From: Azolla caroliniana
Taxonomy: Eukaryota > Plantae > Polypodiophyta
DNA: 64,000 nt
Assembly (NCBI GenBank): GCA_043228905.1
Contig: JBHGNT010000008.1
Location: 13,516,001-13,580,000 of the forward strand
Direction of reading: 5' to 3'
A program made the position numbers and the translations under genes. Below, piece by piece: positions 5,476-33,805 of the stretch; the stretch's first letter is position 1, and the number at the start of each line of letters is the position of its first letter. Under the pieces are notes generated by a model that worked only from the letters and a program-made list of their open reading frames with translations, was not told the DNA's origin and made no database searches.

Positions 5476-5762
5476 CACTGGGTCATTCGAAACAGGTAAT
5501 ATGTCGCAATTTAAGAACAGTCCGTCCAAAAAAGGCAGAAAGTAGGTCATTTCACAAAAAGGACCATCGCATGCATAAAGGGTTTTAGAAATTGAATCAA
5601 AATATATTGATTTATACCATATCCAAAGATTTAGGGCTTCCAAAAAATGCCCCTAATAATCAACACGTGAAATTTACAAGAGAACGTACAAACATTACAA
5701 TATGACTAACATGTATATTTATACATATTTGTGAATCGCCATATTGATGTAACATACAATAT

Positions 5763-8700
5763 TTACATTTCATATATGACATCCATCACTTCCCAGAGAT
5801 ACGCCTTCCCCTTTAGACCCACCCGATGAACTAAAAGAGCTTTGTGAGGTCTCATCCTCATCGGCACTAGCAACCAATGCATTGTCCTCATCCAATTGTA
5901 ATCCAATGTCATCGTGATGATGAGACATACTCCTTGTTCGTCTCTATGTTGTGTCAACAAGCACATATGGTAGGTTCTCTTTTATTATCTTGATTGTAGT
6001 TTGCTTAGATGGCCTGTTTTGGTCAAGGAGAAGTCATACACGAGTATGTCCACATTATCAAGTGCTAGAGTAGACGTTGTCGCGAAAATACGACGAGGAT
6101 ACATGAACTTGAGGTAGGACCCCGGGGCCTCCGACCAGAGGATATCAGATTTGTATGTTTATGTACTAAGAATTACCCGAAAAATAAGAAAGATTGACAA
6201 ATTTCGTTAACAAAGGAAAAGAAAGATTACAATCAATCCCAAGATTGGGATTCAGAAGTTTAGGTTTACTAAGTTTAATAGAAAAGAAAAATTAGGGGTT
6301 TTGAAACTAAGATACGGATTCTATAGGAAAATTATATGGCTTTTGTAGGGAAAATTAGGGTTTTTGGCTTTCGTATGGAAATTAGGGTTTATGAGAGATA
6401 TGGCTTCCGTAGGGAAAATTAGGGTTTTTGGCTTCCATAAGGAAATTAGGGGTTATGAGAGATATGGCTTTCGTAAGGAAAATTAGGGTTTATGGCTTCT
6501 GTAGGGAAAATTAGGGTTTTTGAGTGTTATGGCTTCGATAAGATAAGGGAGCTAAGAAGGAAAAGAAAATAAAAATGGAGAGAGGATCTCAGTGTAGGAA
6601 AAAAAAATGGAATATATATGGAGTTCTCCGTTGGTCATATTCATAGCCTTTCCACTTTTTGTTGCATGGCCTCTACTTTTAGTTGCATAGCTTTTTCTTT
6701 TAGTTGCATGGATTTTTCTTTTAGTTGCATGTGACCGTCCACATGACCTTTACTTTAGTTTTCTTCACTTCATTTTAATTAGCCACATGATCTTGTTATC
6801 CATTCGGTTTGCGTCCAACCTCATTCGGTCGCCGATTGCTGCCGCCTCACCGGCTCCGCCGTCGGTTCCGGTTTGCTTACCGGTCAGTTTTCGATTTTGC
6901 TTACCGGCCAGTTTCAGTTTTGCTTACCGAACGGAACTGGCTGCTAAGAAAATTCGGAAACCGACCGGTAAGCAAACCCTAATTTCCTTACGGAAGCCAA
7001 AAACCCTAATTTTCCCTACAGAAGCCATATAATTTTCCTATCGAATCCATATCTTAGTTTCAAAACCCCTAATTTTTCTTTTCTATTAAACTTAGTAAAC
7101 CTAAACTTCTGAATCCCAATCTTGGGATTGATTGTAATCTTTATTTTCCTTTGTTAATGAAATTTGTCAATCTTTCTTATTTTTCGGTTAATTCTTAGTA
7201 CATAAACATACGAATTTGATATCCTCTGGTCGGAGGCCCCGGGGTCCTGCCTCAAGTTCACGTATCCTCGTCGTATTTTCGCGACAACGTGCTTGGTAGA
7301 TTCTTTCTTCTCCGCTTTCTACTTGTGCCGTTGACATCCTTAACCATCTCTAAAGAGTACTTCCTAGTAAATGCATCTTTGGAAGAGGTATGATACCAAT
7401 GAACCATAATAGACTTTACTTGATTGCCTTCATTTCAATGATTTTGGCAATCCAGAAGGGATGACCCAACTTATCACCCCCAGCTAATGTTGCAACCAAC
7501 ATCTAGATTGCCTTGCCACCTCACCTCTGCAACATGCGATAATCTTGGTCCCACGTAAATATCTCTTTGTCGTGGACGAACTATATTATTCAATTCAAGA
7601 TTATCTAGTGGTTTTAAAGGAGTTGTGCTCGCCATTGATGGGCCACCAAATGCCCATTCAAATTGATTTTGTAGTGGCTAGTACCTTGTAAAGTGGTTAT
7701 CTAATATTGTATGTTGATGATTAAAGAAGACATCCCACCAATCCACATCCTGATCAGCAACGTACTTTTTGGTTTGCTCAATATTTTTCTGTTTTTCCTT
7801 AAGGCACCGCATCCAATATATCTTTTGGTCTTCAGTTGAACTACCAACTACCAATCTTTTATGGTCATCATAGGGCATTTGCTCAACACCATAGATTATT
7901 GCATCTAGGAAATGCAATAAGAGCCTACATCCATCTTGTGGCTCCCATTGCGAACTAGATGAGTATTGTTTGGCATACAACATGGTCTGGTTGTGACTGA
8001 CCACACTTTTTTGGATGAGGAAGACGTGGTTAAAAATTATATTATTAAGCGCAGCAAGAACCCTACATCCAGTCCCATCATCATCCAAACAAAAGCATTT
8101 TGAAATCATATACTTCATCTAAATGTTGCACATCTGGCTTGGGGATATAATCTTCAGTGATCAACCTTGATAGAATAGGAAGTGTGAAAGCATCGCACCT
8201 CGCTAATTTCTTGGAGAACCTACTAAACATTTGATCTCTGTGATCATGTGTATGAACAACTAACAAGAAGTCGGCCTTAATCTTTTTGAAAATACCCTTG
8301 TCTACTAACATGTTAAAATAGCCAAACACAGTTGAGTTCTGGTTTTCTCTCGCCATGTTGTCAAGTTGCACGTATAGTACTGGTGGGAGTAAACCCTGCC
8401 AACTATGCAGAACTCTTTGCATGATTATCATTATAAGATTAGGGTCATTGTAAGATAAGTTAGGAACACTTGAGGCCTTATTGTCTGACAATAAAGAAGA
8501 CATCCTACTAAGTGCATCTGCACTAGGCATCCATCTCCAACATCGTTGGGCAACCTTCAAAAATGTGGCAAACAAGTTTTCTTCTGATCCATCCCATCTA
8601 TACTCAAGCACATATATCTTTCTGGCGATTGAAGCATTTTTTGACGATGGTGCATAGCTTTAGATCTTTCCAACGCCTGTTTTGTTGTAAAACAACTGTC

Positions 8701-9689
8701 TCATGGGCCAGTTTTGGCCTTAAGAAGACGTTAATATATCTTTCTTTCTTTCTTTCTCAATAAATTCTTATATTTTGTTATTTCTTCATTTGTTGTCCCA
8801 CTCTTTGCCATGCTTTTTAAACTCGCGCATATAGAACAAACACCCATCTGGACCTTGCGGAGTATGACCACATTGTTAAACTTCGATCTCCATAACAATT
8901 AAAATGTTGATATTGTATGTGAGGTACACTTTCCAATAACATGTCATGCTTATACGCTTGGTATACCTCATGACTAGTGAAGTTATTTGACAAATGTAAC
9001 CTTCTAGTGGTGGGCATAACATCACATTGCTTCGAGAAATATATCTCCATCCATCTAATGGCATGCCGCCCAATTAGACCCTTAGATGTAGATTTTGTAT
9101 TGTTGAAAGGTACCCACCATCCCTTAAGTAATCGATGTTGAATTCTTTGTAGCCTCATGTTCTTGATGCTATAGGCAATTTTAAAAGAAACTCGACAACT
9201 CTTCATAGTAAGTGAAAGGAAATATTCCACCTATTGAGAACATGACACTGCCAGATGATCCTTCACAAGTTGCATATTGGCAATCAAGAATGAATCTTGT
9301 TCATCGCCATTGAGAGACAAATACTTTTCTCGCAACCCCTACAAGTTTTCCTTTCCAAATTTTGATAGACAAAGGCTCCCACAACATACCTTGCGTATAT
9401 CAATTGCAATTTGGCGACCTGAGCATAGAAAATTATATCGTTTAACGCTCACTTGTCGAGGAACTCTTCGAAAATTTAGAGGCTTATTAACACGGTCGTC
9501 ATCAACATTCGAAAAACTAGACTCATCATGATCTGTATCTACTTTAATATTTCTTATTTTACTTAAGTTAAAAGGCTCTATCAAAAAAAGTGACGTCGAA
9601 CTTTGCTTTCGATCGTCGTTTGACTTTATATGGCACCATTTATTATTAACATGGTTATATTCCTCGATTGAGAATAACAAGTTATCCAA
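5763..9689 (-). pseudogene. Sola1-like DDD transposase pseudogene, interrupted by the TIR element
   Basis: Contains LYVQLDNMARENQN...FLLVVHTHDHRDQMFSRFS (LDN..ENKN / GHT...D type), an upstream Cys-rich region and CDVMP, and many stops and frameshifts. The frame reads KNLPSTSTLALDNVDILVYDFSLTK once 6078-7290 is removed. Confidence 0.7.
6078..7286. mobile_element. Non-autonomous 1.2-kb element with ~310-bp terminal inverted repeats, TGT...ACA ends and ACGT TSD
   Basis: 6078-6389 is the near-perfect reverse complement of 6974-7286. ACGT lies at 6074-6077 and 7287-7290. Confidence 0.92.
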
Positions 9690-10084
9690 TCATTTAGAAG
9701 GCTCAATAAAAAACTAAGAATTTGTACTCGATTTTGAGGACATTTTGAGTAAGGCTAACTAAGATCACAAGAGTCCAAAATAGGCTAAAGTTTAGTTCTA
9801 TAATAAGTGTCATGCCCAAAAGCTTTTTTTTTTAAAACAATTATGCCACAACTAATTAGCTATTTGTTTAGCTAGTTTTTTGTGGGCAAATCATAAGGAT
9901 GGTTTGTAACGAAATTTTATGTTTTATTAGTTAAATACATGCCATTTAATTTATGAGAATACTCAAATATTTGAACTTTGGTTTTTGACATAGTGGAACT
10001 TGGGGAATAGTGTCATCATCTAAGGTCGACTTGAATGTCATCAAATTCCTGATAATCCTGAGTTCAAGTTCGAACTCCAAATAG

Positions 10085-13000
10085 ATGGAGTACTCTGAGC
10101 ACGAACGCAAACGAAGCTCCTACAGCAGCACAAAAACTTGGAGATCGACATTGCACCTTCAGAGCTACAACAGACGACCAATTCAATCCTCGTCCAAGCA
10201 TGTATCAGTTATATATTTATTTATTTATTTATTTTCCTTTCTGATAACTATCTGTAACTTTGGTGCCTATTCATCTTTCCCAAAAATCGAATAGGGTGAA
10301 GTCGTTGGCATCCCAAACAAGGATGTCTTGAAGATCGAGGTGTAGCAGCAAGTGTGTTTTTTATTGAAAAAATTTTGTATTACGGTTGATTTCTGCCTTT
10401 ACTAACGATTAGGGTTTGTGTTTTCCTTAAGTGGTTTAGGGTTTCTGATTACAAATTTCAGGTTACAAGTTGCTGGTTACCAATTTCTAATTACAAATTT
10501 CTGATTATTGTCGCAATGTGTTGTAATTTTGCACCAATTCCCATAACAAATTTTGATTAGGGTTTCTGATTTTTTAAGTGATTGATTTTTGATACATGTT
10601 GAAAAGGACAAATTACAAATTTCTGATTACTATCTCAAAGTGTTGTAATTTTGCACCAAATTCACATTAAAAATTCTATTTTTGCACCAACTTTGATTAC
10701 CGATTTTCTATTTCAGGTGGCTCGTTCCTCCCTATCCTAGAGTGTTGAACTTCCCAAAATTTTGCGAGACAAAGGAGAACGTACACAACATATATGGTAC
10801 GTTGCTTGAGGGTATTGACCCTGTTGTTCTAATAGATAGATTGATTAGTGATGTAGACTGGATGTCAGTATAGGAAGTGCCTAGAGTGAAATGCAAGGTC
10901 AAGCTCAAGCATGTACGATCGGACCTGAACGACGACTACATGAGACTGCACCAGAAAGTACATCAAGAGATCCTAGTCAACAACGAGTTGTCCATTTCAT
11001 TTGCTAGAGCTTTTGCATATGAGTATTGCAAAACACCGAAGGAATATCGTGACCCTGAAATGTACAAGGTAGCTTGGGCAATTTATGGTGAGGCATCGGT
11101 AGAAAGATGCCGGAAGATGGGGAGCTTGCAACAAAAAATGGCAAGATTTTGGAGCATGGCAGTTGATGATGCAACTGCCGACTCACAACAAGCCGGCAAG
11201 GATATGCCACACCTACACACAATGAAAGCCAATGTCGATGATACATGTGAGACATTGATTAGCTATATGCTAAAAAATGTCCATGAAGCTTGTGAGACAT
11301 TGGAGTTTTTAAAGACTGATTTAGAGAAAGCAACATTGGCTGCTGCGATGGAGAGCAAAGTCACTTTGGTAGTTACAACAATCAAAAATAAGATTCAGGT
11401 ACCTATTGTTTTGCTAGTATGTAATATGTTGTAAATAACTTGTACATGAAAATGTGTTACTGAGGCATTATCTGGAATAGGTTGCTCAACATGAGCTTGA
11501 AATTGAGGGGTCGCTGGATCCCTAGCAGAAAATTCAACTGAAGACAGAGATCTAGGTTCTTTCAATGAACCTGGACCTTCTTGGTGTAAATACTGTCCCT
11601 GATTACAATTTGGACAAGCTACAAGTAAGTTAACGATTCCTGTTTCTTGTTGTTGTATCTTCCTCATTAAGGAATAATTAATCGGTAAATTTCTCGGTTG
11701 CGTTGAAGGAACAATATTCCCATCAAGAATAGGTAGTTAGTTGCCTTCAGAAGCAACTACATTTTGTGGAGGGGATGGTAAGGAGCAGACAAGAATTGAA
11801 CTTTAAAATTTTGCTCCCTTACCAAATGAAGGGGAACTAGGAACCGATATATTGACTGTTCAAGCATGTTGCATTGCTTGCGGATTGCGTGTAGAGGACA
11901 AATCTGCTACTCTGCTGGTTCACCTACACACATACCATATCGTTTGTTTTCAATATGCCTGTTGCATTGCTGCATTCTGTTTTGGGGATTGCAGTACAAC
12001 TCTCCCAGATGAGTGGAGAAAAGTAACAGGTAAAATTGTTGCTTGTGACCACAGTGTAGCTAATTAGTTACATCTTTGCTAATTAGGTAAGCCGTATAAA
12101 GTGTGGAAACTATTTAGCTGTTATGGTTGTAGTGTAGTAGCTAATTAGCTGACATATAGTTAATTAGCTACTACCATACTTTAGATGAGTAGCTAATTAG
12201 CTAAGTGGTAGCTAATTAGCTACTACCATACTTTAGGTGAGCAACTAATTAGCTAAGTGGTAGCTAATTAGCTACTACCATACTTTAGTACAATAGCTAA
12301 TTAGCTAAGTGGTAGATAATTAGCTACTACCATACTTTAGCTGAGTAGCTAATTAGCTAAGTGGTAGCTAATTAGCTACTACCATACTTTAGTTATAGTG
12401 GCTAATTAGCTAGTACCATACTTTAGTTGAGTAACTAATTAGCTAATTGGTATCTAATTAGCTACTAGCATACTTTAGTATAGTAGCTAATTAGTTGCTA
12501 CCATATTGAGAAAGAGTAGCTAGTTAGCTAAGTGGTAGCTAATTATCTAGTACCATACCTAGGCAAAGTAGCTAATTAGCTACTATCATAGTCTAGAAGA
12601 ATAGCTAGTTGGCTAAGATGTAGCCGAGTAGGTAATTAGCGACCATGTTGTTGTAGAATCTTGTGGATTAAGGAGGGCGCATGGTGTCCGGTGTTGATGA
12701 CGCTGCAATCGATGAGGAGGTAGCTGCCAACGTGGTTGAAAGTAAGAGTCATGCTATCATATCTCCTTCAGATCAGCTCCACTCTATTCTTTTGGAAGAT
12801 GGTACTAAATTAGGCAACGATGTGAAAAGCCATGAAATATTGGAAACAACATGTAAATCTGAGGTTCACAACAATAGTTTTTTTGAACACTTGATGCAAC
12901 ATTTCTTCGAATCCCAAAACCTTTATTCCACCCTAGCGAGCCCAACTACAGATAATGTCCAAACAAATCCCACTATACTAGAAAAGCTTGCGCAAGACAC

Positions 13001-14250
13001 AGCTGACGTGCAAGACGCTGCTAAGGTGATGGAAAGGTTGTCGGAGGAGGACACACTTGTGCAATGGGTCAAAGAAGCAAGGCTATATGGGCAACCAACT
13101 AGAAAAAGGCTGAAGAAGGGGCCACAATCGGGGACAAGACTAGTTACTCGGTCAAGGGGCTCTTTATTTGGAGCGAAATACTTATTAGTGGGATATGATT
13201 GTTAGCAATTTCCCTAGGTTTTATAAAGTTTTACTATAATCTATTTGGACAAATCAAACCTCATATTGGTTGTTTCTTGATCCACATTATGTAATGGAAC
13301 ATTATGATGTTTCTCCAAGATAATTATGTTCATGTTGTTCTATGATAGAAAATATTTCATGTTCATTATGTTGTTTTGTGAGACTGTTAGTTACTTTGTC
13401 AGTGTGAATATGTTAGTGTTTTCTGATGTTGCAAAGTCTAAAGGGTTTGAATCTATTGCTCCTAAGGTCCATGACAGTGTGGAAACTGTTGATGTTGTTG
13501 CGTGTTTAGAGGGCCACATCTTGAAAGTCGATGTAGCAATTGACATAAATGATCTGGTCATGCAAGTTGATCAAGCATGTTGCACAGATGATCTTATTTT
13601 GCAGGTAGATGTAACATGTGATATGAGTTGGCTAATATCGACCAGATCAGTATCTACATGCATCGACCTAATGACTAAGTCGACAATACAAAAGCACTAG
13701 AATGTGAAGCCAAGCCCAACACAATCGACCGGGGGTTTGAAGAGGAAATAAACACCAATTGTACCGACAGAACCTGAGTTGATTGAAATTGATCGTGTGC
13801 TACTAGTAATTGTTGTAACAGAGGCTCAGTTACAGGAATGGAAACCTAAACCATTAGAAGTCGAACGAAGAGCTTTGATCTTGGAGCTTGATAAAGTCCT
13901 CATGAGTGTGTGATATATGATACCAAGGAGGGACATAAATCAAATTCTAGAATGGGTTGTGCAATACTTTGATTTGTTTATTTGGAGTGAAAAACCACGT
14001 ACAAATGTGTAGAATTGTGTAGAAAGATTCTTCCCGAAGTGGCAACTACATTTCAAGGGTCAGTGGACTCAAGAGAATTATGAGTAGAAGGATGTTGCAA
14101 GATTCAAAAGACTTTCTGATTTTTGGGGCACTTGGCCAGATTATAATGCTGACAATACATTGATTCTGGATACAAAACATTTCGGGCATTATTTCAACAT
14201 TTGTAGATGTTATCTCATTCTACCCAATGAAATGCTTGAACACTAGGTGA
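10085..14250 (+). pseudogene. Decayed multi-exon gene divergent from the Sola1-like transposase, with a C-terminal FCP1/NIF-like HAD domain
   Basis: Exon-like ORFs at 10877-11434 and 12681-13205 with GT/AG boundaries. Reading through three stops, 13851-14246 gives RALILELDKVL...LEWVVQYFDLFIWS...KRLSDFWGTWPDYNADNTLILD. That all exons belong to one gene is inferred. Confidence 0.55.
12055..12640. repeat. Array of the palindrome TAGCTAATTAGCTA
   Basis: Dozens of copies, with higher-order units such as ctaccatactttag and gctaagtggtagc. Confidence 0.95.
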
Positions 14251-14793
14251 AAACATTGAGCTGCCAACTAACTGCATGGTTGTGGACTCCATACCGAGCT
14301 CGGTATGCAGATCATATATGTATAGAAGTTCCACTGACCAACAAGAGCTTAGCTGTTTATAGGCAATTTGAAGACATTGGCAATGGGATGTTATAAATAT
14401 GTAATTTGATGACAGATTAATCAATGAAGAATTAAATTGCTTATTTTGAGTAACTTATGTACTGTGTAATTTTAAGAGTATGTTCAAGATTGTTGATTTC
14501 ATGATAGTGCTTTTTCTTAAAATTATGCAAACTATTTAAACTTGTACATGGTTCACTTGGGTAAATCTGTATCTTAGAAAGAAGAACCCTAAACGATATT
14601 ATTAAACTAGTTTTTAAGAAAGAAGAACATAAAGAAGATTGTATATAAAAAAGACACATGATTTTATTGAGAAAGAAGCATAAAAAGTAGACTGTATATA
14701 AAAAAAAACTACCAAATAGGTCCATTAAACTGTTTATTTGCAATACATGTGCTTTATTTGTTTTACAAGAAAACTGGTAATTGCTACTTGTAG

Positions 14794-17700
14794 CTACAAA
14801 TTCCATGGCATACTGTTGTAAATACATTCATACACATTAGCACTAACTATGTCTACACCTGAGCAGCTATTGTATTGCGACATTGGGACATTGATGCACC
14901 TGACCAAATGAGAGTACATGTACGCCACTGGTTTGTCTTCTAATAGCCTATACACATAATTGTAATCATCTAGTCTTGCATAGAAAATACCTTCCATGTA
15001 GAATGTCTTGGTAGATACAACATTTCTCCAAGCACCTAATATATTCTGCGTTGCACACTATTTATTAACTGTGCACTTCAATATATAGAAATCAACTTCC
15101 TATGAATTGCCTTCTTCTGCATTTGCAACGAAATTATCCCCAACATTTAAGACATTACTCAGAGTATCTCCACGTCCTTGATATGTGAAGTCAACATTCT
15201 TTTCTGTTTCTCCATCAATTGCTTCCTTATCGTTCAATGTATGATACTCCCAATTCTGAATATATGATTTGTTTAAACAATACCTCCCATTTCCCTGCAC
15301 ACAATGGAAGCAAAAACAAGTGAATTCTCTTACTGCAATACAATGACCATCCAACCTAGAATAACCACGAACAACATGGAGAGATCGCAATTCAGGAATT
15401 CCTTAGCACTCCAAGGTCTTCTCCCTATTTTCTTCATCTATCTTTACTTCCCAAAATTCACGTTTGATATCTCGAACCTGCGAGGAATAAACACCATCTC
15501 CCTTTAGCTCTTAAAAATTCAACTACATGTGTTGCACAATTCATCTGCACACCATTTGCCTTTAGTTGTTCATGGGTAAGTGCCCACTTTATAACAACAC
15601 CTGCACCATCATGTTCACCTTTACCATGACCAGACCCAAAAAAATTCCATCTCATCTCCGAACTTGTTATAGAAGGATACCTCCCCACAAAATAAAGTGG
15701 ACGTCTAGCCTTGAATTGTGACGCAACTCCATTAGACCAAACGTTTAGCTAATAACCATTGTCAATGTAAGCTAAAACAATGTTGGACAAACAAGGTATC
15801 ATGCTTCTTATCATCAGAAATAAAAAAATGAATTACTTTTTTAGCATCACCTGAAACTCGAAAATATGTTATGTGCACAAAAATGGTTACCTACGCTGCG
15901 CTGAACACCAATGCATAGATTGAATTTCATTCTACTACTTGAAAGTATAATTCTCTGCGAAATCTACTACTGAGACTACTACATCATTTGGAAAATCAGA
16001 TATGCAAGTCTTAAACTGATGGGCTTGCCATGAATAAATGTGTGTTTAATGAAATTTCCTAGAGATACTACAAATAAAGACGCCAAATCCCTTGGTTTAA
16101 GCGACTTCCTAACTAGATCCTTTCTTTTACACACCTTTCCTTCGAAATTAGTGTCAACTGACCCAAATAACTTGACATAGATTAATATTTCACTACTCAA
16201 TTCATTTGGACACCACCTAAATCTACTAGGGCCACAATCTTGACATAAACCTATGACTATGGAAGATGGCCTCAGTTTTTCTCGGACACAATACTGAAGC
16301 TAAAAGACAACTCATGGAAGAGATAACATGCTCAGATTATTTATAGTGCTCTTGCGGGCTCGATAGACAAATTGGGCACTCACAATTGCAAAATGCATTA
16401 GTTAGGGAGGCGCTATGGTGATGTAGTAGATTAACTGAGTCCTTGTGAAAACCCATTTGTACATGGTTAATGCAACACCATGTGTATCAATCCTTTAAGC
16501 GTCTCACAAAGTGTGGCTTAAGAGACTAGAATGTTCCTAGTTGAACTTTGATATTTGGATGCATTTGCTTGAACCTAATAAATAAATCAACCTGCATAAT
16601 AACATGGACATACTGATTAGCTGATTTGCTATGCTCCAAACTTGTTATAGCAGCTAATAAGCTATTCCAGTAGCTAATTAGCTATCCTAGTAGCTAATTA
16701 GTTGGTAATAACTAAATTAGCTATTGGGAATACCTAATTAGCTAATCTAGTTACTAATTAGCTATCCTGGCCGTTAAATAGCTAGTAATAGTTAAATTAG
16801 CTAGTAAAAACTAATTAGCTATCTTGGCCGTTAAATAGCTAGTAATAGTTAAATTAGCTAGTAAAAACTAATTAGCTATTCGGAATAGTTAGTTAGCTAC
16901 TCTAGTAGCTAATTAGCTATCCTAGCAACTAATTAGCTAATTAGCTATGATTGGTAGCTAATTAGCTATTTTAGTAGCTAATTAGCTATCCTAGCAACTA
17001 GTTAGCTGGTAATAGCTAAATTAGCTATTGTGAATAGCTAGATAACTAATCTCGTAGCTAATTAGCTATAGTTATATGCAGCTAATTAGTTAGTTAGTTA
17101 GTTTGCTATTTAGGTAGGTAAATAGCTATGCTCATGTTCTTAAGTAGCTAATTAGTTATTCTGGTAGCTAATTTGCTATAGTCATAGGTAGCTAATTAGC
17201 TATTCTAGTAGCTAAATAACTATGATTGGTAGCTAATTAGCTATTCTGGTTGCTAATTAGCTATCTTGGCAGTTAAATAGTTGGTAATAGCTAAATTAGC
17301 TGGTAATAACTAATTAGCTATTGGGAATAGTTAATTAGATATTCTAGTAGCTAATTAGCTATAATCATAGACAGCTAATTAGCTATTTTGGTCGCTAAAT
17401 AGCTATGATTGATAGCTAATTATCTATCCTAGAAACTAATTAGCTGGTAATAGCGACATTAGTTATTGTGAATAGCTAGTTAGCTAATCTGGTAGCTAAT
17501 TAGCTATAGGTATATGTAGCTAATTAGCTAGTTAGCTAGTTAGCTATTCTGGTAGCTAATTAGCTAGTCATACACAACTAATTAGCTATTTTGGTAGCTA
17601 AATAGCTATGCTCATATTCTTAGGTAGCTAATTAGTTATTCTGGTAGTTAAATAGCTATAGTCAGAGGCAACTAATTAGCTATTCTGGTAACTAATTAGC

Positions 17701-18779
17701 TGAGAGTGCTAGCTAATTTGCTATGGTTGGTAGTTAATTGGCTATTCTAGTAGCTAATTAGCTATCCTAGTAGCTAATTATCTGGTAATAACTAAATTAG
17801 CTATTAGGAATAGCTAGTTAGCTATTCTGGTAGCTAGTTAGCTATAGTCATACACAATTTATTAGCTATTTTGGTAGCTAAATAGCTATGCTCATATTCT
17901 TAGGTAGCTAGTTACCTATTCTAGTAGGGGATTAGCTATTCTGGTAGCTAATTACCGATAGTCATAAGCAGCTAATTAGCTAGTCTAGTAGCTAATTAGC
18001 TATTATGGTAGCTCAATGGCTATGTTCGATATTTTGTGGTAGCTAATTAACTATTCTGGTAGTGAACTAGTTGGTAATAGCTAAATTAGCTATTGGCAAT
18101 CACAATTAAGCTATTACTAGTACCTAGTTAGCTATGGTCATATTCTGAGGTAGCTAGTTAGCTATGGTCATATTCTAAGGGAGTTAATTAGCTATTATGG
18201 CAGCTAATTAGCTATTACTGGTAGCTAGTTGGCTATGGTCATATTCTGAGGTAGCTAATTAGCTATTCTGGTATGTTCATATTCAGAGGTTGTTAATAAG
18301 CTAACTAACTATGCTCAAAAGTCAAAACAAATGTTGAGATAAATGTAAATACCTTAGGTACATCAAGAAGATGAATGGCATACTCCTCGTATTGACTCCT
18401 TCCAACACGTTTCTTGCATAAATCCTTCTTATTGGGTGAAACCCTACTCTCATTAGTCCAAAATATTGTGATTATATTGGAGATTATTTAGTAGTATAGA
18501 TGTTATGTTTGCATTAAGACCATCACAATCAACTAACTCCTTTATCGATGGATCATTTAATATTCCATAAAGTACTACCTTCTTGTCTTCATTGCTGATG
18601 TGCTTGGTTTGAACACTAAAATAGTCGACAACCTTTCTCTCTATGATAGTAGTCTCAGTACTTCCATTCTCAGTCATAGTTAGACCTATATCGCAACCAA
18701 TACTATCTTTACCTTTAGTCAGTGTGGCTTTTGTATCCTTCAACAATTGACGATGTTTTCTTTTTTCTTTCCTGCCCAA
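14794..18779 (-). pseudogene. Sola2-like DDD transposase pseudogene with intron 16592-18352
   Basis: Motifs VVDFAENYTF..NEIQSMHW, FFISDDKKHD, WSNGVASQFK and WNFFGSGHGKGEHDGAG. A GT-AG phase-0 intron joins HLLDVPK to VDLFIRFKQ. Confidence 0.75.
16615..18310. repeat. 1.7-kb TAGCTAATTAGCTA palindrome array filling the transposase intron
   Basis: Directly visible, and confined between the splice sites at 16592 and 18352. Confidence 0.95.
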
Positions 18780-19009
18780 TACTTTCGTATCGCTTGTTGT
18801 GTCCTAATTGCGTTATCCCTATCTTGATGATCATTGAGGGTAATTCTAAACACCCTCCTTCCCCTTCCATTTGCCTTGACGGGTTTAAACCCTAATTTTC
18901 CCGAAAAAAAGACACGTATTAAAGATGGTTATGGACAACAACAATACACAAAAAACATTCCGCAATACACAAGATTATACACAACAATACACAAGATAAT
19001 CAATAGGCA

Positions 19010-19207
19010 GAATAATTATTGAAATCCAAGACCGAACAATGGCGGTAATGCAAGGCCGAATAGTGGCGGCAACTGAGTGTAGAATGGCAGCAGTGGAGGA
19101 GTGAACTCCGTTTCATCGAACAATTTTGGCAATCTAGGACCAAACAATTGTGACAACTGAGTATATAATGATGGCAATGGAGGAGTGAATTCTGTTGGAT
19201 CGAACAG
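19010..19207. repeat. Degenerate ~70-bp tandem repeat, left part (split by the copia insertion)
   Basis: Unit ggcaactgagtgtagaatggc..ggaggagtgaactc..atcgaaca. Continues at 24395. Confidence 0.8.
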
Positions 19208-22200
19208 TGTTGGGATTTTCGGTCCCTCCGGATGGGATGTCCGGAGATGAATGACGGCAAGCCCGGTTGCGGTTACGGAACCGGAGGATGAAGAGTACCC
19301 GGCATGAAGCCGGATGAAGAGTACCCGGCTACGGAGTCGGATGATGTAGACCCCGGCTACGGAGCCGGATGATGAAGACCCCGGCTACGGAGCCGGATGA
19401 TGAAGACCCGGCTGCCGAGCCGGATGATGAAGACCCCGGCTACGGAGCCGGATGATGAAGACCCGGCTACGGAGCCGGATGATGAATGTACCCGGAGAGA
19501 GATCCGGATGCGGGGACATATTTGTGAATATGTTTTGCCAAGGGCCCTGGAGGCTATATTTGTAAATAGCCCTAAAGTCATATGTGTATAAATATGACTT
19601 AGGGCAAACAGTTTTATGTTGCTACTCATTTTTCTGTTTTTCCACTCTAGAGGAGTGAAGAGAGAGCAGCCGTGAGAGAGATAGAGCGTGAGAGAGGAAG
19701 AGGTCGACGCCTCTGTGTAATACCGCCGCCTGTGGCGAGGACAGCGAGCTCAAGGTCGTCGCCTTGCAACTCGCCATTGTATATTTCTCTGTGCATAGTT
19801 TTGGTTTGGAGTCTTGCACTCCCGTGGTTTTTCCCGTATAGGGTTTTCCACGTTAATCCCTGTGTTATCGTGTCTTTCTCTGTGTTTCCTATTTTCTGCT
19901 GCATTGATTCGTGATTTCTCGGTTGTGGCCGAACGGTGAAGGTGAATCGGAGCGTGGATTCGTCACAAGTGGTATCAGAGCGACGGCAGTGCAGAAAATG
20001 GAAGGCGGCAGCAGCGGGCAGCCGGGGATGATGGTGCTGAATGCGCAGAACTACGCCGACTGGAAGATCAAGATGGAGGATCTTCTGATTGTTCGGGACC
20101 TGTACGAACCGATTGACAGGTCGGAAATACCGAAGGGGGTACTTGAGACGGAATGGAGGCTTCTGAACCGGAAAGCCGTTGCAACCATTCGGCAATACGT
20201 CGACGTGAGCGTTCTACAACATGTGGCGAACGACACCAACGCATACGAGATGTGGCGGAAGCTGTCGGGCCTCTACGAGAGGAAGAATGCGTTGAACCGG
20301 ACCTCCCTGATGAGGAAGATAGTGAACCTCAAGTACCGGGACGGCGAGAGTATGGTGGAACACGTAAGCACGTTCATGGGATTCGTGAACCAGCTTGCGG
20401 CGATCAAGTTCCCGCTGGAGGATGCAATGCAAGCCATCATTCTGATGTGTACATTGCCGGAAAGCTGGGAGAACTTGGTGGTGACTCTCAGCACCTCCTG
20501 CACCGAAGATAACTTGTCTCTACAAACGGTAAAGACAAGTATTTTGAACGAAGAAGCGCGTCGGAGAGATAAAGAACCGGCCTCCGACCCGAAGGCGCTG
20601 CTTACCGAATCGGATCGGGGAAGACAATGGAGGTACGTGCCGGATGGGAAATGAAGGTACGTGCCGGATTGCCGGCATAGGAGACGTGTGGTTGACAACC
20701 TCGACCGGATGCAAAATGCTGCTGAAGGATGTTCGACACGTTCCGGAGGTTCGATTGAACCTGATTTCGGCCGGGAGGCTAGACGATGAAGGCTACACGG
20801 GTAGCATCCGGAACGGTGTCATGAAGTTCAGCAAAGGGAGCCTGATAGTGGCTCGGGCCCAGAAAGTCAACACACTGTACCTTATGAATGCCCGGTTGTG
20901 TCCGGAAGAGTTGAACGTGGCAGCCGACACTGCCGGTGAGCTGTGGCACAAGAGACTGTGCCACATGAGTGAGAAGGGGATGAAGAGGCTTGCAGAAGAC
21001 AACCTTATCCCAATGAAGCATGTGCATCTGGAGAAGTGCACCGATTGCCTGGCCGGTAAGCAGAACCGAGCCTCCTTCCACTCAAGGCCACCGACGAGAC
21101 GTAGCGCACCATTGGAGTTGGTGCACATTGATGTGTGTCAGGTAGAAACGAAGTCACATGGCGGAGCCCAGTACTTCGTAACATTCATAGATGATCACAG
21201 CCGGAAGCCGTGGACGGCACCGTTGAAGACAAAGGACCAAGTATTGTCCGTCTTCAAAGAACTCCACGCGAGAGTGGAAAGGGAATCCGGCAAGGAGCTG
21301 AAAGCGATACGAGCGGATAACGGAGGGGAATACCGGGGGCAGTTCGAGGAGTACTGTCGCTCGAAGGGAATCCGGCTCGAGTTTACTGTGCCGAAGACGC
21401 CGGAACTGAACGGGCTGGCCGAGAGGATGAACCGGACCATAATGGAGAGGGTCCGGAGTATGCTGGCGCATGCGAAATTACCCAAGGGGTTTTGGGCTGA
21501 GGCAATGTCGACGGCGACATACGTGATAAACAGATCACCCTCAGTACCTTTGGATGGAGACACGCCGCAGAGAGTGTGGACCGGTAGGGAAGTATCCTAC
21601 CGGCATCTGAAGGTGTTCGGGTGTCTCGCATATGTGCATGTGGCAAAGGACCGGAGAGGAAAGCTAGATCCAAAGACCCGGCCATGCATATTCCTCGGTT
21701 ACGGCAACGACGAGTTCGGCTACCGAGTATGGGACCCGGTCGACAAGAAGATATTCAGGAGTCGTGATATCATCTTCATGGAGGACAAGACACTCGCCGA
21801 CTGGGAGTCGGAGAAGAAGATGAAGAGCTCAAAGTCGACCGGTGAGAATCAACTCTACGAAGAGCAGTCCCGACCGGCAAGGGACCGGTTAGCACTCGAG
21901 GATCCGGCCGAAGACGGTGAAGAAACAGAACTGGCCGAGGAAGATGAAACTGATACCGGAACCGGCCCCGATCCCGAAATGGATTCGGATGAAGAGGAAA
22001 CGGAGGAGCCGGTTACCGAAGCCCCGGAACGGAGATATCCTCTAAGAGAGAGAAGGGCCCCCCGGAGATTTCCGGAACCAGAGCACGTGCTGCTAACCGA
22101 CGAGGGGGAGCCGGAGAATTTTGAAGAAGCAGAGCTTGACACACATAGCCGCAGGTGGTTAAGTGCCATGCAGCAGGAGATGGATTCCCTGCATGAGAAC

Positions 22201-24394
22201 CACACATATGAACTTGTGGAGTTGCCGAAAGGAAAGCGGGCACTTCGAAACAAGTGGGTGTTCAAGCTGAAACCGGGAGATGCCGGAAACCCCCCGAGAT
22301 ACAAAGCCAGGATCGTGGTGAAGGGGTTCCAGCAAAAGAAGGGCGTCGACTTCGACGAGATATTTGCCCCGGTAGTGAAGATGACCTCCATCCGGACGGT
22401 GCTGAGCATAGCGGCAAGCATGGACCTCGAGGTAGAACAGATGGACGTGAAGACGGCATTCCTTCACGGTGACCTCGAAGAAGAGATCTACATGCAGCAA
22501 CCGGAAGGATTCGAGAAGAAAGGAAAGGAGCACCTGGTATGCCGGTTCAAGAAGAGCCTCTACGGTCTGAAGCAGGCTCCCCGGCAATGGTACCGGAAGT
22601 TCGACTCCTTCATGACAGACGAAGGGTACCACAAAACGCAGACCGATCACTGCGTGTTTGTGAAGAAGTTCGAAGGAGGAGACTTTCTAATACTCCTCCT
22701 GTACGTGGACGACATGTTGATCGTCGGACGAGACCAGGTCAAGATACGGATGCTGAAGAAGGCTCTTCACCGAACCTTCTCAATGAAGGACCTGGGTCCG
22801 GCGAGGCAAATACTAGGGATGCACATTATCCGGGACCGGAAGAAGAAGCAGTTGTGGTTGTCACAGGAGAAGTACGTGACAAAGGTGCTTCACCGGTTCA
22901 ACATGTCGGAAGCAAGACCGGTCGGGTCAACACTCCCGGCAAACTGCAAGCTGTCCAGGAAGCAAAGCCCCAAGACAAAGGCTGAGAAGGAGGTCATGAT
23001 GAAAGTACCATATGCCTCTGCCGTCGGGAGCTTGATGTACGCAATGGTGTGTACCCGACCGGACATAGGATATGCAGTCGGAGTGGTGAGCCGGTACATG
23101 AGCAATCCCGGCAAAGAGCACTGGAACGCGGTCAAATGGATACTCCGATACCTAAAGGGCACTTCGAACATGTGCCTCCGATTCGGCTCCGGTAAGCCCG
23201 AACTCGATGGATTTACCGATTTGGACATGTCGGCTGATGCGGATACCAGCCGGTCCACATCAGGGTATGTGATGACGTATGCAGGGGGAGCTGTTTCGTG
23301 GCAGTCGAGGCTGCAGAAGACGGTTGCGTTGTCAACCACGGAGGCGGAGTACATGGCGGCTGTTGAAGCCGGCAAGGAAATAATATGGATGAAGGAATTC
23401 ATTAGAGAGCTCGGTATCCGGTAGGAGGAGTACCGGCTCTACTGCGATAGTCAGAGTGCCATCCACCTTGCGAAGAACGCGGCCTACCATTCCCGGACGA
23501 AACACATCCAGCGTAGATACCACTGGATCCGGGAAAGGATAGAAGACAAGGAGTTCGTGCTGACGAAGATCCACACGGACGAGAACAGGTCGGATATGCT
23601 GACCAAGGTGCTCACACCCGACAAGCTGGAAGCATGCCGGAAGAGGATCGGATTGGAGAGACATCCCATGCCGAAGTGAAGGGGGAGTTTGTTGGGATTT
23701 TCGGTCCCTCCGGATGGGATGTCCGGAGATGAATGACGGCAAGCCCGGTTGCGGTTACGGAACCGGAGGATGAAGAGTACCCGGCATGAAGCCGGATGAA
23801 GAGTACCCGGCTACGGAGTCGGATGATGTAGACCCCGGCTACGGAGCCGGATGATGAAGACCCCGGCTACGGAGCCGGATGATGAAGACCCGGCTACGGA
23901 GCCGGATGATGAATGTACCCGGAGAGAGATCCGGATGCGGGGACATATTTGTGAATATGTTTTGCCAAGGGCCCTGGAGGCTATATTTGTAAATAGCCCT
24001 AAAGTCATATGTGTATAAATATGACTTAGGGCAAACAATTTTATGTTGCTACTCATTTTTCTGTTTTTCCACTCTAGAGGAGTGAAGAGAGAGCAACCGT
24101 GAGAGAGATAGAGCGTGAGAGAGGAAGAGGTCGACGCCTCTGTGTAATACCGCCGCCTGTGGCGAGGACAGCGAGCTCAAGGTCGTCGCCTTGCAGCTCG
24201 CCATTGTATATTTCTCTGTGCATAGTTTTGGTTTGGAGTCTTGCACTCCCGTGGTTTTTCCCGTATAGGGTTTTCCACGTTAATCCCTGTGTTATCGTGT
24301 CTTTCTCTGTGTTTCCTATTTTCTGCTGCATTGATTCGTGATTTCTCGGTTGTGGCCGAACGGTGAAGGTGAATCGGAGCGTGGATTCGTAACA
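19208..24394 (+). mobile_element. Young Ty1/copia (Tork/Tnt1-like) with LTRs 19208-19967 and 23690-24394
   Basis: TG..CA LTRs nearly identical apart from repeat copy number. TSD AACAG at 19203-19207 and 24395-24399. Met PBS at 19970-19981 and PPT gaagggggag at 23678-23687. Confidence 0.97.
19998..23678 (+). pseudogene. Copia gag-pol (gag, IN, RT, RNaseH) with an internal deletion/frameshift and a premature stop
   Basis: Contains LWHKRLCH, RADNGGEY, QMDVKTAFLHG, LYVDDML and STTEAEY. The CCHC knuckle and protease DSG motif are missing near 20630. TAG at 23422-23424 interrupts RNaseH. Confidence 0.93.
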
Positions 24395-24970
24395 AACAGT
24401 GGCAGATGATGCTTGGAACGCATAGTGATGACAACTGAGAGTACAGTGGCGGCAATGGAGAAGGAGTGAACTCCATCGGATCGAAAAGTGGTAGCAATAC
24501 ACGATCGAATAGTAGCGGCAACTAAATGTAGAATGATGGCAATGGATGAGTGGACTCCGTCAAATAAAAAAGTGGCAGCAATCCAGGACTGAATAGTAGC
24601 GGCAACTGAGTGTAGAATGATGGCAATGGAGGATTGAACTCCGTCAGATCGAACAATGGCAGGTGATGCTTGGAACGCACAGTGACGGCAACTGAGAGTA
24701 GAATGGCGGCAGTGGAGAAGGAGTTAAATCCATCGGATCGAAAAGTGGCAACAATATACAACCTTCACAGTAGCGGCAACCGAGTGTAGAGTGGCGGCAA
24801 GGGAGGAGTGAACTTGGCAGATTATGCTTGGACTGAACAATGGCGGAAACTGAGTGTAGAATGGCAGCAATGGAGGAGTGAAATCTGTTGGATCGAACAA
24901 TGGCAAATGATACTTGGACCACACAGTGTCGATAACTGAGTGTAGAATGGCGGTAATGGAGGAGTGGACC
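24395..24970. repeat. Degenerate ~70-bp tandem repeat, right part
   Basis: Same unit as 19010-19207, about 8 copies. Confidence 0.85.
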
Positions 24971-25500
24971 CAATAGGGTTTAACAACATTGGTAGTAATC
25001 TAAGCCAGAATACTCAACCAGAGATGGCCCACGTGATGTGGCAAAGGATCATGCATAATGGACCTAGGAATTCAGTATATAATTTATGGTGCACATCAAT
25101 TTATGTTGCACATTTATGGTGCTCATTTATATAATTCAAACTCTCTACTATTTTCAATGGTAGCATTTTGCATAGCTAATTAGCTATGTCAAGGACATAA
25201 CTAATTGTTTGCACTCACATGCTTTCACCCATAAGGGGAAGTCATCTTCTCATTGTCATTATTGCGTTCAAGCAATAGAAGAACATAGGAGCATAGAGCA
25301 ACCGAGACTTCTAGTTTTCGTCTCCCCGGTCAAGTCGACACCAACGTCAACAACATGAACAAGGGAAAGAAGATTGCCAGGTATGTTTTCCGAACTATAT
25401 TTTTAGATTCTTCAAAGATTCCTAAAATATTCCTTTTTGTGTTTGTTAATTTCTGCGTCCAAAATTCGATGATTTCAATCAATTTCTCATCATTTATACG

Positions 25501-25649
25501 GGAACTCGATGCAGTGGATCGAGTTCCAGTTGGAGTGTTCTCTTTCAACGAGAACTCGATGCATTGCATCGAGTTCCCGTTGAAAGGGGGGAGAACTCGA
25601 AGCAGTTCATCGACTTCTCGTTGAAAGAGTGTTCCCTTTCAACGAGAAC
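25501..25649. repeat. Cluster of short palindromes/hairpins
   Basis: Three variants of gaactcgatgcattgcatcgagttc, plus tcgttgaaag..ctttcaacga. Confidence 0.8.
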
Positions 25650-25857
25650 AAAGGGGGGACTTTCATGATCAATATACTAGAATTGGTCACTTTCTTCCTA
25701 TTTTTTCACAATTATCTCAATGTTTTTTTATGTAACATTACAACACTAAATGGGTGATTTTCGCCTACTTTTGTGGAACTTTACCCTAGTTTTCAAGTTT
25801 CTGTTGGTTATTTTTAAGATTATTGATATATCATTGTGTTATTACTTGTTTTTTTCA

Positions 25858-27679
25858 GTGAATCACGACAGAAGCTCCCATTCTTCAAATTGAAGATTCC
25901 CTCCCCAACAAAAAAAACTTCCGACACCATGTCCAAGCCTAACTCACGGAAAACGTTTATTGAGTCGGGAGGGGATGGGACTTCACACACTTTAGGAGAA
26001 AAGAGTAGTGGGGAGGCTCGCCTAAAGAGCTATCCTCATCTCGAGTGGACATTAATCTATAGCCAGGACGAAGGAGATTTGCTCCTTATTTTTGCGAAAT
26101 CTGAAGATGAGGGCAAGTTGCAGGTGGGGAAGAGTTTCACCTACGACCATGTAAAGAACATCGAATACGAAGACAACGACTCATCGAACCTCTTGTTCAA
26201 TGTTGATAGATCGGTGGGGATGCAGAAAGTTAGGATAGATGAACAAAATTTTGTAATTGACTCATGCCACCCGAAAGCTTTGAAAACTGATGTTCAAACC
26301 AAAAATAATTTGATTCTTGCTTTGCGCCCTTATTAAGGAAGAGTTGATGGTTACGCAAGCAACCACACCACCAAAGTCCACCAATAAATCAAAATTGGAA
26401 CATAAGAAGTACAAGAAAAGGCAACAGCCTAAGGAGGATGAGCCTGATGTATTCGAGTTCGTGGAAGATGAGGAAGAAGATACCGAGCTCAAAGTTATTC
26501 TCCAGGAGGCCACATTGCATCAGGAATACTCACCTCAGAGCAGAATCGGATAAGAGAAAACATTGTGAAGACGAAGCTTGTCCGTAAAGGACAACTATTT
26601 CAGTTGCCGATCTCCTTTGTTCAGAAGCCACCCATTGATCATGAAACAGGAAGACAGGCTCTAGAAATAAGAGAGCCACATTCAATGCATGTGCAAAAAG
26701 ATGTCACGTATCGAGTGCATCAGGTTCTTCCATCACGAGTACCTTGATGCGTCGCAATAATTTGGTCCTAGGCTGCATCGTGGATTGCAACGACAATGTC
26801 TACTTGAAGTGGGGATAGTGATTGACGAAGATGATAGATTATTAATATTTGTATTATCAAGAGTGGCCACGAAGGAGTTCAGCCTTGATGAAATGGTCAC
26901 AGAGTTTCAAAAGTGAGTATTCTATGTGATGACTTATTTTCCTTGTATTCATTTGTTGATTTTCTAGACTTCATTCTAACCTTACTTTCTTTTAATTTTT
27001 AGCCATAAGGTTTATATGAAGATACAAGAGTTGATGATGAAAAAGTTGTCCCTGCCTATGTGGGAAGAAGTGGAGCAATCATGCCCAAAAACATCATCGT
27101 ACAAGGCTCTTGAAGAATTCTTCCTCGTGTTTAGAGAATGGGTATGTATGTTTTACAAATATTAATTGATTTTAGGATAATGGGTTTCTTCTTACAAAAT
27201 TTATAAAAACAGAAACCATGTCATTCAAAAAAAAGAGTGACAACAATGAAGGTATACCAAGCGCCTTCATCACCCATTTGGAACTAGCTAAATATGAGAC
27301 ACGAATGACAAAAAGAAAGGAGCTTGAGGTGCTTGAGGACTCAGATACTGTGAAAAGCTTTTTGCGCAAGGTTGATCCTTTCCGACAATTGTACTGTAGT
27401 GTATATAATGGTGATGTGGGTAATATGCTTGGCATATTACCGAAGCGACATTATACATTGCTCGTCGTGGATATACTGAATGGATTCCAAATATCAGGCT
27501 CTACATACAACGATATGCCATACAAATATCCGCAAATAGAGAAGATGGTTAAAGACTTTGCAGAGCTAACCCTGGCTCCATTATGGCGAATCGTTATATT
27601 TCATAGTATGGGTCATGCTTTATCGGTCACTACTCCATTGAAGTCCAGATGTCATGCCACCGAACACATGCATTGGTAA
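25858..27679 (+). pseudogene. Decayed multi-exon gene whose last visible exon resembles the N-terminal half of a beta-class DNA amino-methyltransferase (N6_N4_Mtase type)
   Basis: VYNGDVGNMLGILPKRHYTLLVVDILNGF aligns by eye to xxGDxxxxLxxLPxxxxxLxxxDPPYG, followed by a motif-VI-like WRIVIFHS. It ends at HW followed by a gtaag donor. Motif I (FxGxG) was not found. Confidence 0.55.
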
Positions 27680-28124
27680 GCTTTATGTTAATATATATTT
27701 AATGTAGGGTCGACGCATGCTATGGTGCACCAAAAAAGTAATGTTTTTGGCTAAAAAAAAACATGAGTACTATTAGTACTAAGTAATTATTAAAAAGTTT
27801 TAAAGAAAATCGGAAAAATTTGTAATATTTTTAGGGAGTGAGGTGGGGGTATTGCACGTTGCATTTAATGGGGGGAGACAGTTGTTGCGTATTCAGGAGT
27901 TAGGACTGATTTGGGGGATATTTCCCCCACTTTTAATTTAGCATGGCACATTAATTGAATTTGGCGCTTCTCACCATTTTGGTGTCACCTCTTCCTCCTT
28001 CCAACCGAGCCCATCTCAGATTCACCGTTTTGTCGTTATCTGCATCTCAAGTATTCGCAACACTCGAATGTCCCCAAGATTTGGTTGTTCTTTGTGTCAC
28101 GCATCTTCCCCATCTTCGCCTTCT

Positions 28125-28235
28125 GTCAATATCTCTTCTCCTGCCCTCAGTATTTCTTCTCCTTCCCTCGGTGTGTCATCTCCTTCCCTCGATTTGTCTT
28201 CTCCTTCCCTCGGTATGTCTTCTCCTTCACTCGGT
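28125..28235. repeat. 21-bp minisatellite (tcttctccttccctcggtrtg), about 5 copies
   Basis: Directly visible. Confidence 0.8.
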
Positions 28236-29911: not shown

Positions 29912-29951
<40 letters not shown>

Positions 29952-30218
29952 TGATAAGAAAAGATATATATTATGTGAAGAAAATGTACAGTAGCTAGGA
30001 GGCTTAAGACTGGCGTTGAACCGATTTGGTTCGAAATAATGCCTTGTGCCTCCTTTTATAGTGTTCTAAGGAATACTCCTGAAGTTTCTAGAATGTTCCA
30101 GAGAAATCTGGAATATATATCTAAACCCTAAATAATATTCTATGTATTACAATGTATAGTCTAATGGTCAAGAGCTCGACCCATGTAGTATAAGGTCATG
30201 GGTTCGAGTCTTGCCATA

Positions 30219-33200: not shown

Positions 33201-33805
33201 ATGACGATACTTCTCAGGAAGTTGAACAGTGGATCCTTCTTTAGTGGTGCTGGAGGGGTTTACTGATATTGCAAAGAGGAACATTTCCTCCTTGTGCCCT
33301 TCTTTACGCAACTGACGTAGCGAAATGGTTGCCATCTTCTGAGTTGACCCTTGGGTTTGTCGACACCGGATTTCTCTTGTTCTCCAATCTATGTCTGGGT
33401 TATGTAACTCGAACCATGGTAATCCTAAAACTATGGGATGTTCTGGGATACTAATAATATTAAATGATACTACACATGCAAAGTTATCTAGGACAATATT
33501 AATGGGCTCTGACTCTTCTATGATATTTCCGGAAGCAATGGGACGTCCATCAATGACTACTACAGAGGCTGGACATTGGAGTTTTCTTAGGGATATCATA
33601 TGAGCTTGAGAAAATTTCTTATCCATAAAGCAAGAGTTAGCTCCGGAATCTAGGAGTGCTAGGACATGTACTGGAGGGGTACTTTTAGTACTAACTATTA
33701 CTTGGGCTGCGAACACATCACTAACTTGCTTAGAGGGAATGGAACCACTAATGGGCTGCACAGATCTAGGGCTGTCCAACCAAACGGCTCCTATTTTGGT
33801 TGGAC
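30219..33805 (-). pseudogene. Pol (protease, RT, RNaseH, integrase, chromodomain) with frameshifts and stops
   Basis: Contains LDSGA, YLDD, YEIHDKELLAIV, SDRGPQF, DGQAER, GPF and EYEVAAILD...YLVDWLGY...TWEP, split over five ORFs. Confidence 0.93.

Follow-up and report, generated by a model that had tools for sequence, protein, structure and literature searches.

A dead methyltransferase gene fragment in Azolla caroliniana is accessory cargo of an abundant Sola1-type DNA transposon, with a nested element between it and its transposase

Results

Anatomy of a split Sola1-type element

The window, that is, the whole 64,000-nucleotide stretch of Azolla caroliniana DNA analysed here, contains the following features of a Sola1-type element and of the elements inserted in it.

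5470..5473: candidate target site duplication (TSD) ACAA, adjoining the left terminal inverted repeat (TIR) of the Sola1-type element
5474..5506, + strand: left 33-bp TIR of the Sola1-type element; nothing else in the window matches the family TIR
5814..9752, - strand: Sola1-type (DUF7869) transposase pseudogene, true partner of the methyltransferase (MTase) gene (PF25273, E 1.6e-37; tblastn/tblastx of intact copies)
6074..7290: MITE-like insertion whose inverted arms measure 317 bp, with ACGT duplicated at its ends, missing from related copies
9845..25230: nested, unrelated Sola2-like element, mapping end to end onto ~12-kb TIR-bounded copies with 4-bp TSDs elsewhere
19208..24394, + strand: copia LTR retrotransposon inside the Sola2-like element, with 5-bp TSD AACAG
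25355..25380, + strand: exon 1 of the MTase gene (ATG, MNKGKKIA), then GT; the identical 26-nt exon is found in 24/31 young copies
25502..25617: three 25-bp palindromes (core CGATGCA-S-TGCATCG) within intron 1, all decayed, at spacings of 50 and 41 bp
25859..26912, + strand: exon 2, encoding the variable N-terminal part and then the ParB-like domain (fold taken from the intact domain)
27003..27141, + strand: exon 3, 139 nt, HKVYMK...FREW
27213..27675, + strand: exon 4, N-terminal half of a beta-class MTase (Atlas lead to a PF01555 cluster, score 0.90)
27676..27709, + strand: first bases of intron 4, up to 27709, where homology with the family ceases

The MTase gene here is a dead piece of the accessory gene of a Sola1-type DNA transposon present in many copies, and the nested Sola2-like element has come between it and its own transposase. 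The two portions of the Sola1-type element (5465-9835 and 25231-27709) are separated by just 48-69 bp in six related loci, and in the window the true partner transposase lies ~15 kb upstream of the MTase gene. The original prediction had the MTase carried head to head with the HGKG transposase of the Sola2-like element, but that transposase belongs to a separate element with TIRs of its own, ending on the right at 25230. The wrong partner was first assigned because the Sola2-like element is nested between the MTase and its own transposase; for the window itself, the outcome is a correction in which a dead copy had been misassigned through nesting. Element termini had also been described as not found, and the left TIR is now located.

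The Sola2-like element spans 15.4 kb in the window, with an HGKG..DG transposase on the - strand (~14794-18800), separate cargo ORFs on the + strand and AGCTAATTAGCT arrays; its right TIR ends at 25230 and its left TIR is lost. Its landing site is the MTase gene's putative TATA box, with ATAA right after the element, and the corresponding empty site in a related copy reads CTATATAAGGG. The order of events is that the Sola2-like element landed at the putative TATA box and lost its left TIR, and the copia element arrived later.

As had been proposed, the MTase gene in the window is dead. Besides the promoter insertion, exon 2 carries frameshifts near 26332 and 26500, one stop, and deletions of ~290 bp at 26698, with loss of the GGSH motif, and of 255 bp at 26829; motif IV has decayed from DIPY to DILN (27470-27481); and all sequence past 27709 is lost, with exons 5-6 (QKP, FSGTG) and the right TIR of the element absent from the window. 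The transposase pseudogene is frameshifted and contains the MITE-like element, whose arms are 96% complementary and which has internal repeats and the 4-bp ACGT duplication. The span originally delimited, 25858..27679, captured exons 2-4 and missed exon 1 and the palindromes. Its peptide VYNGDVGNMLGILPKRHYTLLVVDILNGF...WRIVIFHS...HW is indeed in frame from 27401, although the 'HW*' taken as the exon end is intron read-through beyond a splice donor at 27676. The three changes invoked to restore motif IV (two CpG transitions and one transversion) agree with the subfamily majority, which reads GCG GAT ATA CCG TAT (ADIPY) where the window reads GTG GAT ATA CTG AAT.

The sequence that replaces the remainder of the MTase gene (27710-28400) had no match among the fetched loci; it includes, near 28113-28235, a short repeat with a period of 21 bp. 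About 47 kb beyond the window end lies a 3' piece of the window copy's subfamily, with exons 3-6 and a right TIR (L085:7356-7392), and its flanking ACAA matches the candidate TSD of the window's left TIR. Among the 24/31 rows kept for comparison (those aligning over 800 nt), this piece, at 93%, was the nearest to the window copy of the 23 others, and it repeats ~1 kb of that copy. Possibly it marks the other extremity of the insertion seen here, which would then span ~106 kb and include an internal duplication of 1 kb.

The MTase is linked to a Sola1-type transposase across the genome

Exon 4 returned 1223 first-look candidates in the 523-Mb genome and exon 5 returned 1112, both being lower-bound style counts rather than copy numbers; all 150 scored exon 4 matches (150/150) had E<=1e-71, far above what chance would give. 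Flanks were fetched for 55 MTase loci (10 near the window copy, and 31 and 14 from two young subfamilies), chosen from the top of the exon 4 and exon 5 match lists and biased to copies that are young and have open frames. The young ones are 97-99% alike and form elements of 7.5-7.8 kb or 8.6-9 kb bounded by 33-bp TIRs. An exact 4-bp TSD was found in 32 of the 35 loci with both TIRs, 4 bp being the TSD length of Sola1 elements. The left half encodes an intronless transposase of ~900 aa on the strand opposite to the MTase (PF25273 DUF7869, E 5.6e-51). Its assignment to Sola1 combines this PF25273 match with a comparison by eye, in which the segment LYVQLDNTARENKN / LYVQLDNTARENKNSTVFGYL fits the Sola1 catalytic-core profile consensus (positions 82-107, ilysDncagqNknsfvlaall, in the consulted part of the PMC5751038 supplement). 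Most copies are broken. Six exons could be located in 24/31 copies of the first young subfamily, four of which (4/24) have no internal stop; L118 and L129 combine an MTase without internal stop with a transposase frame of 897-898 aa, and L131 and L132, from the second young subfamily, look intact.

The DUF7869/Sola1-type transposase is head to head with the MTase in 46/55 loci from three subfamilies, the other nine being truncated, inverted or interrupted. The consistent linkage to the HGKG..DG transposase that the original prediction expected was seen at none of the 55 loci in the fetched flanks, and positive controls on the window worked; the two transposases have no significant similarity to each other. 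Conversely, the MTase was found within the TIRs of none of ten HGKG elements (0/10), and only one of the ten loci has an MTase gene nearby, of a more distant lineage and 1.4 kb outside the right TIR. It is hardly credible, then, that the HGKG (Sola2-like) element carries the MTase as cargo, or that the MTase is host sequence captured passively. The former idea draws on that single neighbouring gene and on the window, where the HGKG transposase is nearer to the MTase and points away from it; it was rejected since linkage is 0/55 and the HGKG element's own TIRs and TSDs exclude the MTase.

A predicted fusion of a ParB-like domain to an amino-methyltransferase

The intact gene has six exons, GT..AG introns and a predicted 968-aa product, ordered as a variable N-terminal part, the ParB-like domain (GGSH at 345), a linker, the MTase domain (DIPY at 688, QKP, FSGTG at 849) and an acidic tail. 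Splicing was viewed in contigs from what we guess to be RNA runs (one study, related organism): intron 3 is skipped exactly at GT..AG in contigs of 3/4 runs, the predicted 89-nt intron 4 is seen in one contig (depth 2), and an intron 5-sized gap is present in one contig. In these presumed RNA contigs, intron 2 is retained in some, and near intron 4 the joint with the greatest depth leaves out 217 nt and would shift the frame.

Motif IV reads DIPY in 47/55 copies and NIPY in 3/55, and FSGT (motif I) is present in 45/55, placed C-terminal to motif IV and, as FSGTG, across exons 5-6; the DIPY motif and downstream FxGxG exon anticipated for other copies were thus both found. A PF01555 match had been anticipated for 27218-27679, and exon 4 alone gave none, either from the window or from an intact copy; the profile matched exon 5, the part lost here (L129, E 4.5e-8, 33.7 bits versus the curated cut-off of 26.7). 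Pfam searches with the window's own exons returned neither an MTase nor a ParB match, and a word-index search with exon 4 for longer proteins passed 0/581 candidates. A PDB sequence search with exon 5 listed six beta-class MTases, all weak (E 0.017-0.88). For fold comparison, the full-length homologue P0096, which shares 28-34% identity with the exons, stood in for the family's own spliced protein; its model (pLDDT 77) matched CcrM best (E 1.1e-14), with MboIIA and RsrI also found. The same fold matches the 4mC enzymes N4CMT (E 4.2e-11) and PvuII (7.3e-11), so 6mA and 4mC activities are not separated by fold. In all, the earlier view of a spliced beta-class amino-MTase carried by a plant DNA transposon is supported by the six exons, the TIR-bounded element, the PF01555 match and the fold.

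Proteins named from Ceratopteris richardii and Chara braunii are among the homologues, as are Gb_ gene models; identity is 71% for the Ceratopteris protein in the ParB-like part and 42-46% for the Gb_ models. Exon 4 has 130 homologous cluster representatives. The presence of relatives in Ceratopteris, Ginkgo-type gene models and Chara suggests that the lineage may span streptophytes. A fourth, more distant MTase lineage occurs at L099-L100 (joined locus H099, 14780-18392), with 26-70% amino-acid identity depending on the part. The D, P and Y of motif IV, QKP and FxGxG are kept across distant homologues. Judging from motifs and folds, the intact gene is predicted with good confidence to encode an active amino-MTase acting on DNA. 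That the domain instead serves as a binding module or an RNA modifier, as do METTL3-like or DIRS1-borne domains, is distinctly unlikely: DIPY does depart from DPPY, variants such as DAPY, DIPH and DLPR occur in homologues, METTL3/MTA1 appear lower in the fold list, and the DIRS1 MTase domains are described as likely inactive in the consulted part of PMC4738411; against this stand the retained residues, the best folds, which are DNA enzymes, and the fusion to a ParB-like domain.

The segment IREPHSMHVQ, previously offered as a possible ParB-like remnant, is the start of the ParB-like domain. The model of the intact exon 2 domain matches Noc/ParB in Foldseek (E 3.6e-5 to 6e-4) and PadC (Z 9.6, rmsd 3.0, 99 aligned), and its helical part weakly matches the DNA-binding domains of KorB (Z 4.4) and ParB (Z 3.9). 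In ParB/Noc CTPases, the arginine patch for CTP is GxxRxxA; here this position reads GGSHSAEAR, with GGxH....AR in homologues. An Atlas search with the ParB-like part gave a tentative lead to DUF3723 fungal clusters. For the fast-evolving N-terminal part (L129:5055-5560; window 25827-26333), Pfam offered a PH-like hint, Sec3 PIP2-binding, that is weak and falls below cut-off (E 0.009).

Comparing the majority sequence of one subfamily with that of a second gave pN/pS values of 0.073/0.88 for the MTase and 0.048/0.92 for the ParB-like part, and pN 0.27 for the N-terminal part; pN and pS are reported since dS was saturated (pS ~0.9). With pS saturated and pN at only 0.05-0.07, the sequences point to strong purifying selection and therefore to a gene that, during the elements' activity, was retained for the protein it encodes. 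Passive cargo, the second form of the capture idea above, was rejected on this excess of pS over pN between subfamilies.

A phased palindrome array in intron 1

The core CGATGCA-S-TGCATCG recurs in up to five units (<=5) in one young subfamily and 8-18 in the other, and spacing in these two younger subfamilies is mostly 41 or 51 bp or sums thereof. Spacings of 41 and 51 bp correspond to ~4 and ~5 helical turns, and the palindromes would therefore face one side of the DNA. Their flanks differ by subfamily yet remain symmetric (AAATC..GATTT versus GAACT..AGTTC), and in the fourth lineage (one locus, H099), the core is altered on both arms and still symmetric (CGATACG-G-CGTATCG). Such symmetry-preserving change would be expected of the binding site of a dimeric DNA-binding protein, and the palindromes may alternatively have a hairpin role. 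We consider binding by the ParB-like part of the element's own protein probable on the basis of these sequence patterns. From its position in intron 1, the array is 3-4 kb distant from each TIR; the TIRs themselves showed no palindrome core.

Host cytosine methylation and the proposed function

In the 31 young copies, C>T changes affect 3.6% of CG and 3.7% of CHG sites versus 0.2-0.3% of other sites (columns with >34% minor allele or <4 copies were dropped), and the second subfamily is similar. A Sola2-like control without a methylase (seven copies) shows 1.5% at CG and 2.1% at CHG, and the MTase element is no lower. CG and CHG sites of the young copies and of the palindromes deaminate ~9 times above background; CG positions of the palindromes were changed in 7/168 and 102/1000 cells, units within an array not being independent. 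This footprint indicates that the element is normally 5mC-methylated by the host and that the palindrome array is not spared. If the enzyme has an effect, it must therefore be transient, confined to certain stages or different in nature, for example on the timing of transposition.

We have very little doubt about the anatomy of the element, its linkage, nesting, motifs, purifying selection and palindrome arrays. Our preferred reading of their function, to which we give slightly better than an even chance, is that the protein binds the palindromes in its own intron 1 and writes a local mark that licenses transposase expression. The ParB-like part would dock on the phased array beside the two divergent promoters, the MTase would mark nearby DNA of the element's shared divergent promoter region, and this mark would license expression of the transposase by an activating or anti-silencing effect. 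That the MTase could mark the element's own DNA, as had been proposed, is plausible. That such a mark is local in cis, and that it activates or counters silencing, are claims that by themselves stand evenly poised between true and false. As for its chemistry, we lean towards 6mA over 4mC because the eukaryotic 4mC writers MpDN4MT1 and N4CMT have SPPY and the family has a D-type motif IV, although some 4mC enzymes use D in motif IV.

The footprint bears differently on two other readings. One is that the enzyme writes 4mC at the element's own CG or CHG sites and so directly blocks host 5mC, close to the original suggestion that the MTase protects the element. This reading is compatible with the fold, with the occurrence of 4mC writers in Marchantia and bdelloids, and with a palindrome core that holds two CG and a central CWG. 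However, CG and CHG transitions are not reduced in the element or its palindromes, and motif IV begins with D or N rather than S, a motif IV starting with S being found in none of 55 copies and none of the 107 proteins (of 164) aligned across the motif. Protection of CG sites from 5mC was rejected in its simple form, deamination in the element being no lower than in the Sola2-like control; 4mC protection may be limited to some stage, and overall we judge this reading quite improbable. The other is that a self-written mark times or restrains transposition, with fully methylated copies off, copies hemimethylated after replication on, and the ParB-like part gathering the array, much as Dam controls IS10/IS50 (methylated off, hemimethylated on). 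It accounts for the same anatomy and selection, palindromic sites can sense hemimethylation, and no escape from host 5mC is needed, so that heavy CG/CHG deamination fits. It is nonetheless unlikely given the distance of the array from either TIR and the lack of the core there.

On a broader reading, which we hold to be less likely than not, land plants would host an ancient transposon lineage with a self-contained, bacterial-style epigenetic module, in which a parS-like, helically phased palindrome array would load a ParB-like clamp carrying an adenine MTase along the element, leaving hundreds of loci with a transposon-written, sequence-addressed 6mA (or 4mC) mark and a switch independent of host 5mC.

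Relation to known systems

The Azolla MTase resembles CcrM, M.MboIIA, M.RsrI and M1.HpyAVI (PF01555) in having motif IV before motif I, a QKP..L segment and the same fold, and it differs from them in DIPY rather than DPPY, five introns, the ParB-like fusion and the acidic tail. Anti-silencing MULEs of the VANDAL/VANC type also pair a transposon with an accessory protein, which is aimed at repeated motifs in the element's own sequence and acts by 5mC loss; VANC has no methyltransferase or ParB domain and serves as a model for a possible mode of action. Prokaryote-derived beta-class amino-MTases are also known in eukaryotes from MpDN4MT1 (bioRxiv 2021.02.12.428880) and bdelloid N4CMT (PMC8885841, PMC10406627), which, in the consulted parts of these sources, are 4mC writers encoded by host genes and have SPPY, unlike the transposon cargo with DIPY described here.

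The closest precedent is Sola1-1_Ec32 of the brown alga Ectocarpus, a single 21.5-kb family with two intact copies whose opposite-strand gene encodes a 1104-aa ParB-like plus N4C/N6A methyltransferase protein, proposed by its authors to bind and modify the element's own sequence (PMC12477816, as far as consulted). The gene pair and the hypothesis are the same; the Azolla elements differ from those in the consulted text in being from a land plant, compact (7.7-9 kb), in at least three subfamilies and represented by >1100 first-look candidates. A phased palindrome array has no mention for Sola1-1_Ec32 in the consulted text (PMC12477816); the comparison made here covers gene content and proposed function. 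In Bostrychia, the Plavaka (EnSpm) genes PAG2 and PAG3 likewise bring a transposon-borne PF01555 methylase and a ParB-like domain, and tandem inverted repeats beside the ParB gene are proposed as its binding sites; according to the part consulted, these are separate genes (MTase-SET and ParB-2OG oxygenase) in another superfamily and in red algae (bioRxiv 10.1101/2025.02.11.637652). The Azolla family is therefore a land-plant case of a transposon accessory system already described in algae. PMC4738411, in its consulted part, lists other ParB-linked and transposon-borne eukaryotic MTases, this one not among them. We found no land-plant report of this transposon system in the literature searched; one may exist in subscription journals, in Repbase, in Iyer 2011 or in bioRxiv supplementary files. 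Similar green-algal proteins are reportedly covered in Iyer 2011.

The reality of 6mA and 4mC in land plants, and their writers, are contested, and this family offers a candidate writer at ~1000 places in one genome. Dead copies and the co-resident, methylase-free Sola2-like element provide built-in controls, the predicted docking site varies by subfamily, and a compact plant element with intact young copies makes the algal self-marking idea directly testable; were that idea true, a sequence-addressed DNA-marking tool would be a further gain.

The Sola2-like family and other repeats

The label Sola2-like for the nested element rests on terminal features: Sola2 elements are said, following Bao in 2009 (Sola definitions), to have 5'-GRG termini and a 4-bp TSD. 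Members of the family end in GGG..CCC with 25-bp TIRs, and an exact 4-bp TSD was found in 5/8 loci with both ends found. The sole part of the Sola2 catalytic-core profile looked at (positions 161-185) was uninformative for this element. The family is young and abundant, with 968 first-look candidates and many open frames of 619 aa (intact relatives L091-L104), and its members have two long AGCTAATTAGCT palindrome arrays, one within an apparent transposase intron. The + strand cargo ORFs include a C/H-rich segment and matched no Pfam family in a Pfam search. The copia element within the window's copy is young and GC-rich, with LTRs 99% alike (300 bases compared) and an interrupted long frame.

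Elsewhere in the window, a second, more distant HGKG-type transposase remnant (39016-39900, + strand) is 39% identical to the intact HGKG transposase. Gypsy-type elements with a chromodomain-like C-terminal segment occupy 29808-35456 and 51465-53057 on the minus strand. Tandem repeats have periods of 41 bp (40300-40758) and 283 bp (46031-46909), and two related, GC-richer repeat blocks at 49524-51327 have a 118-bp period and many GTGCGT/ACGCAC motifs.
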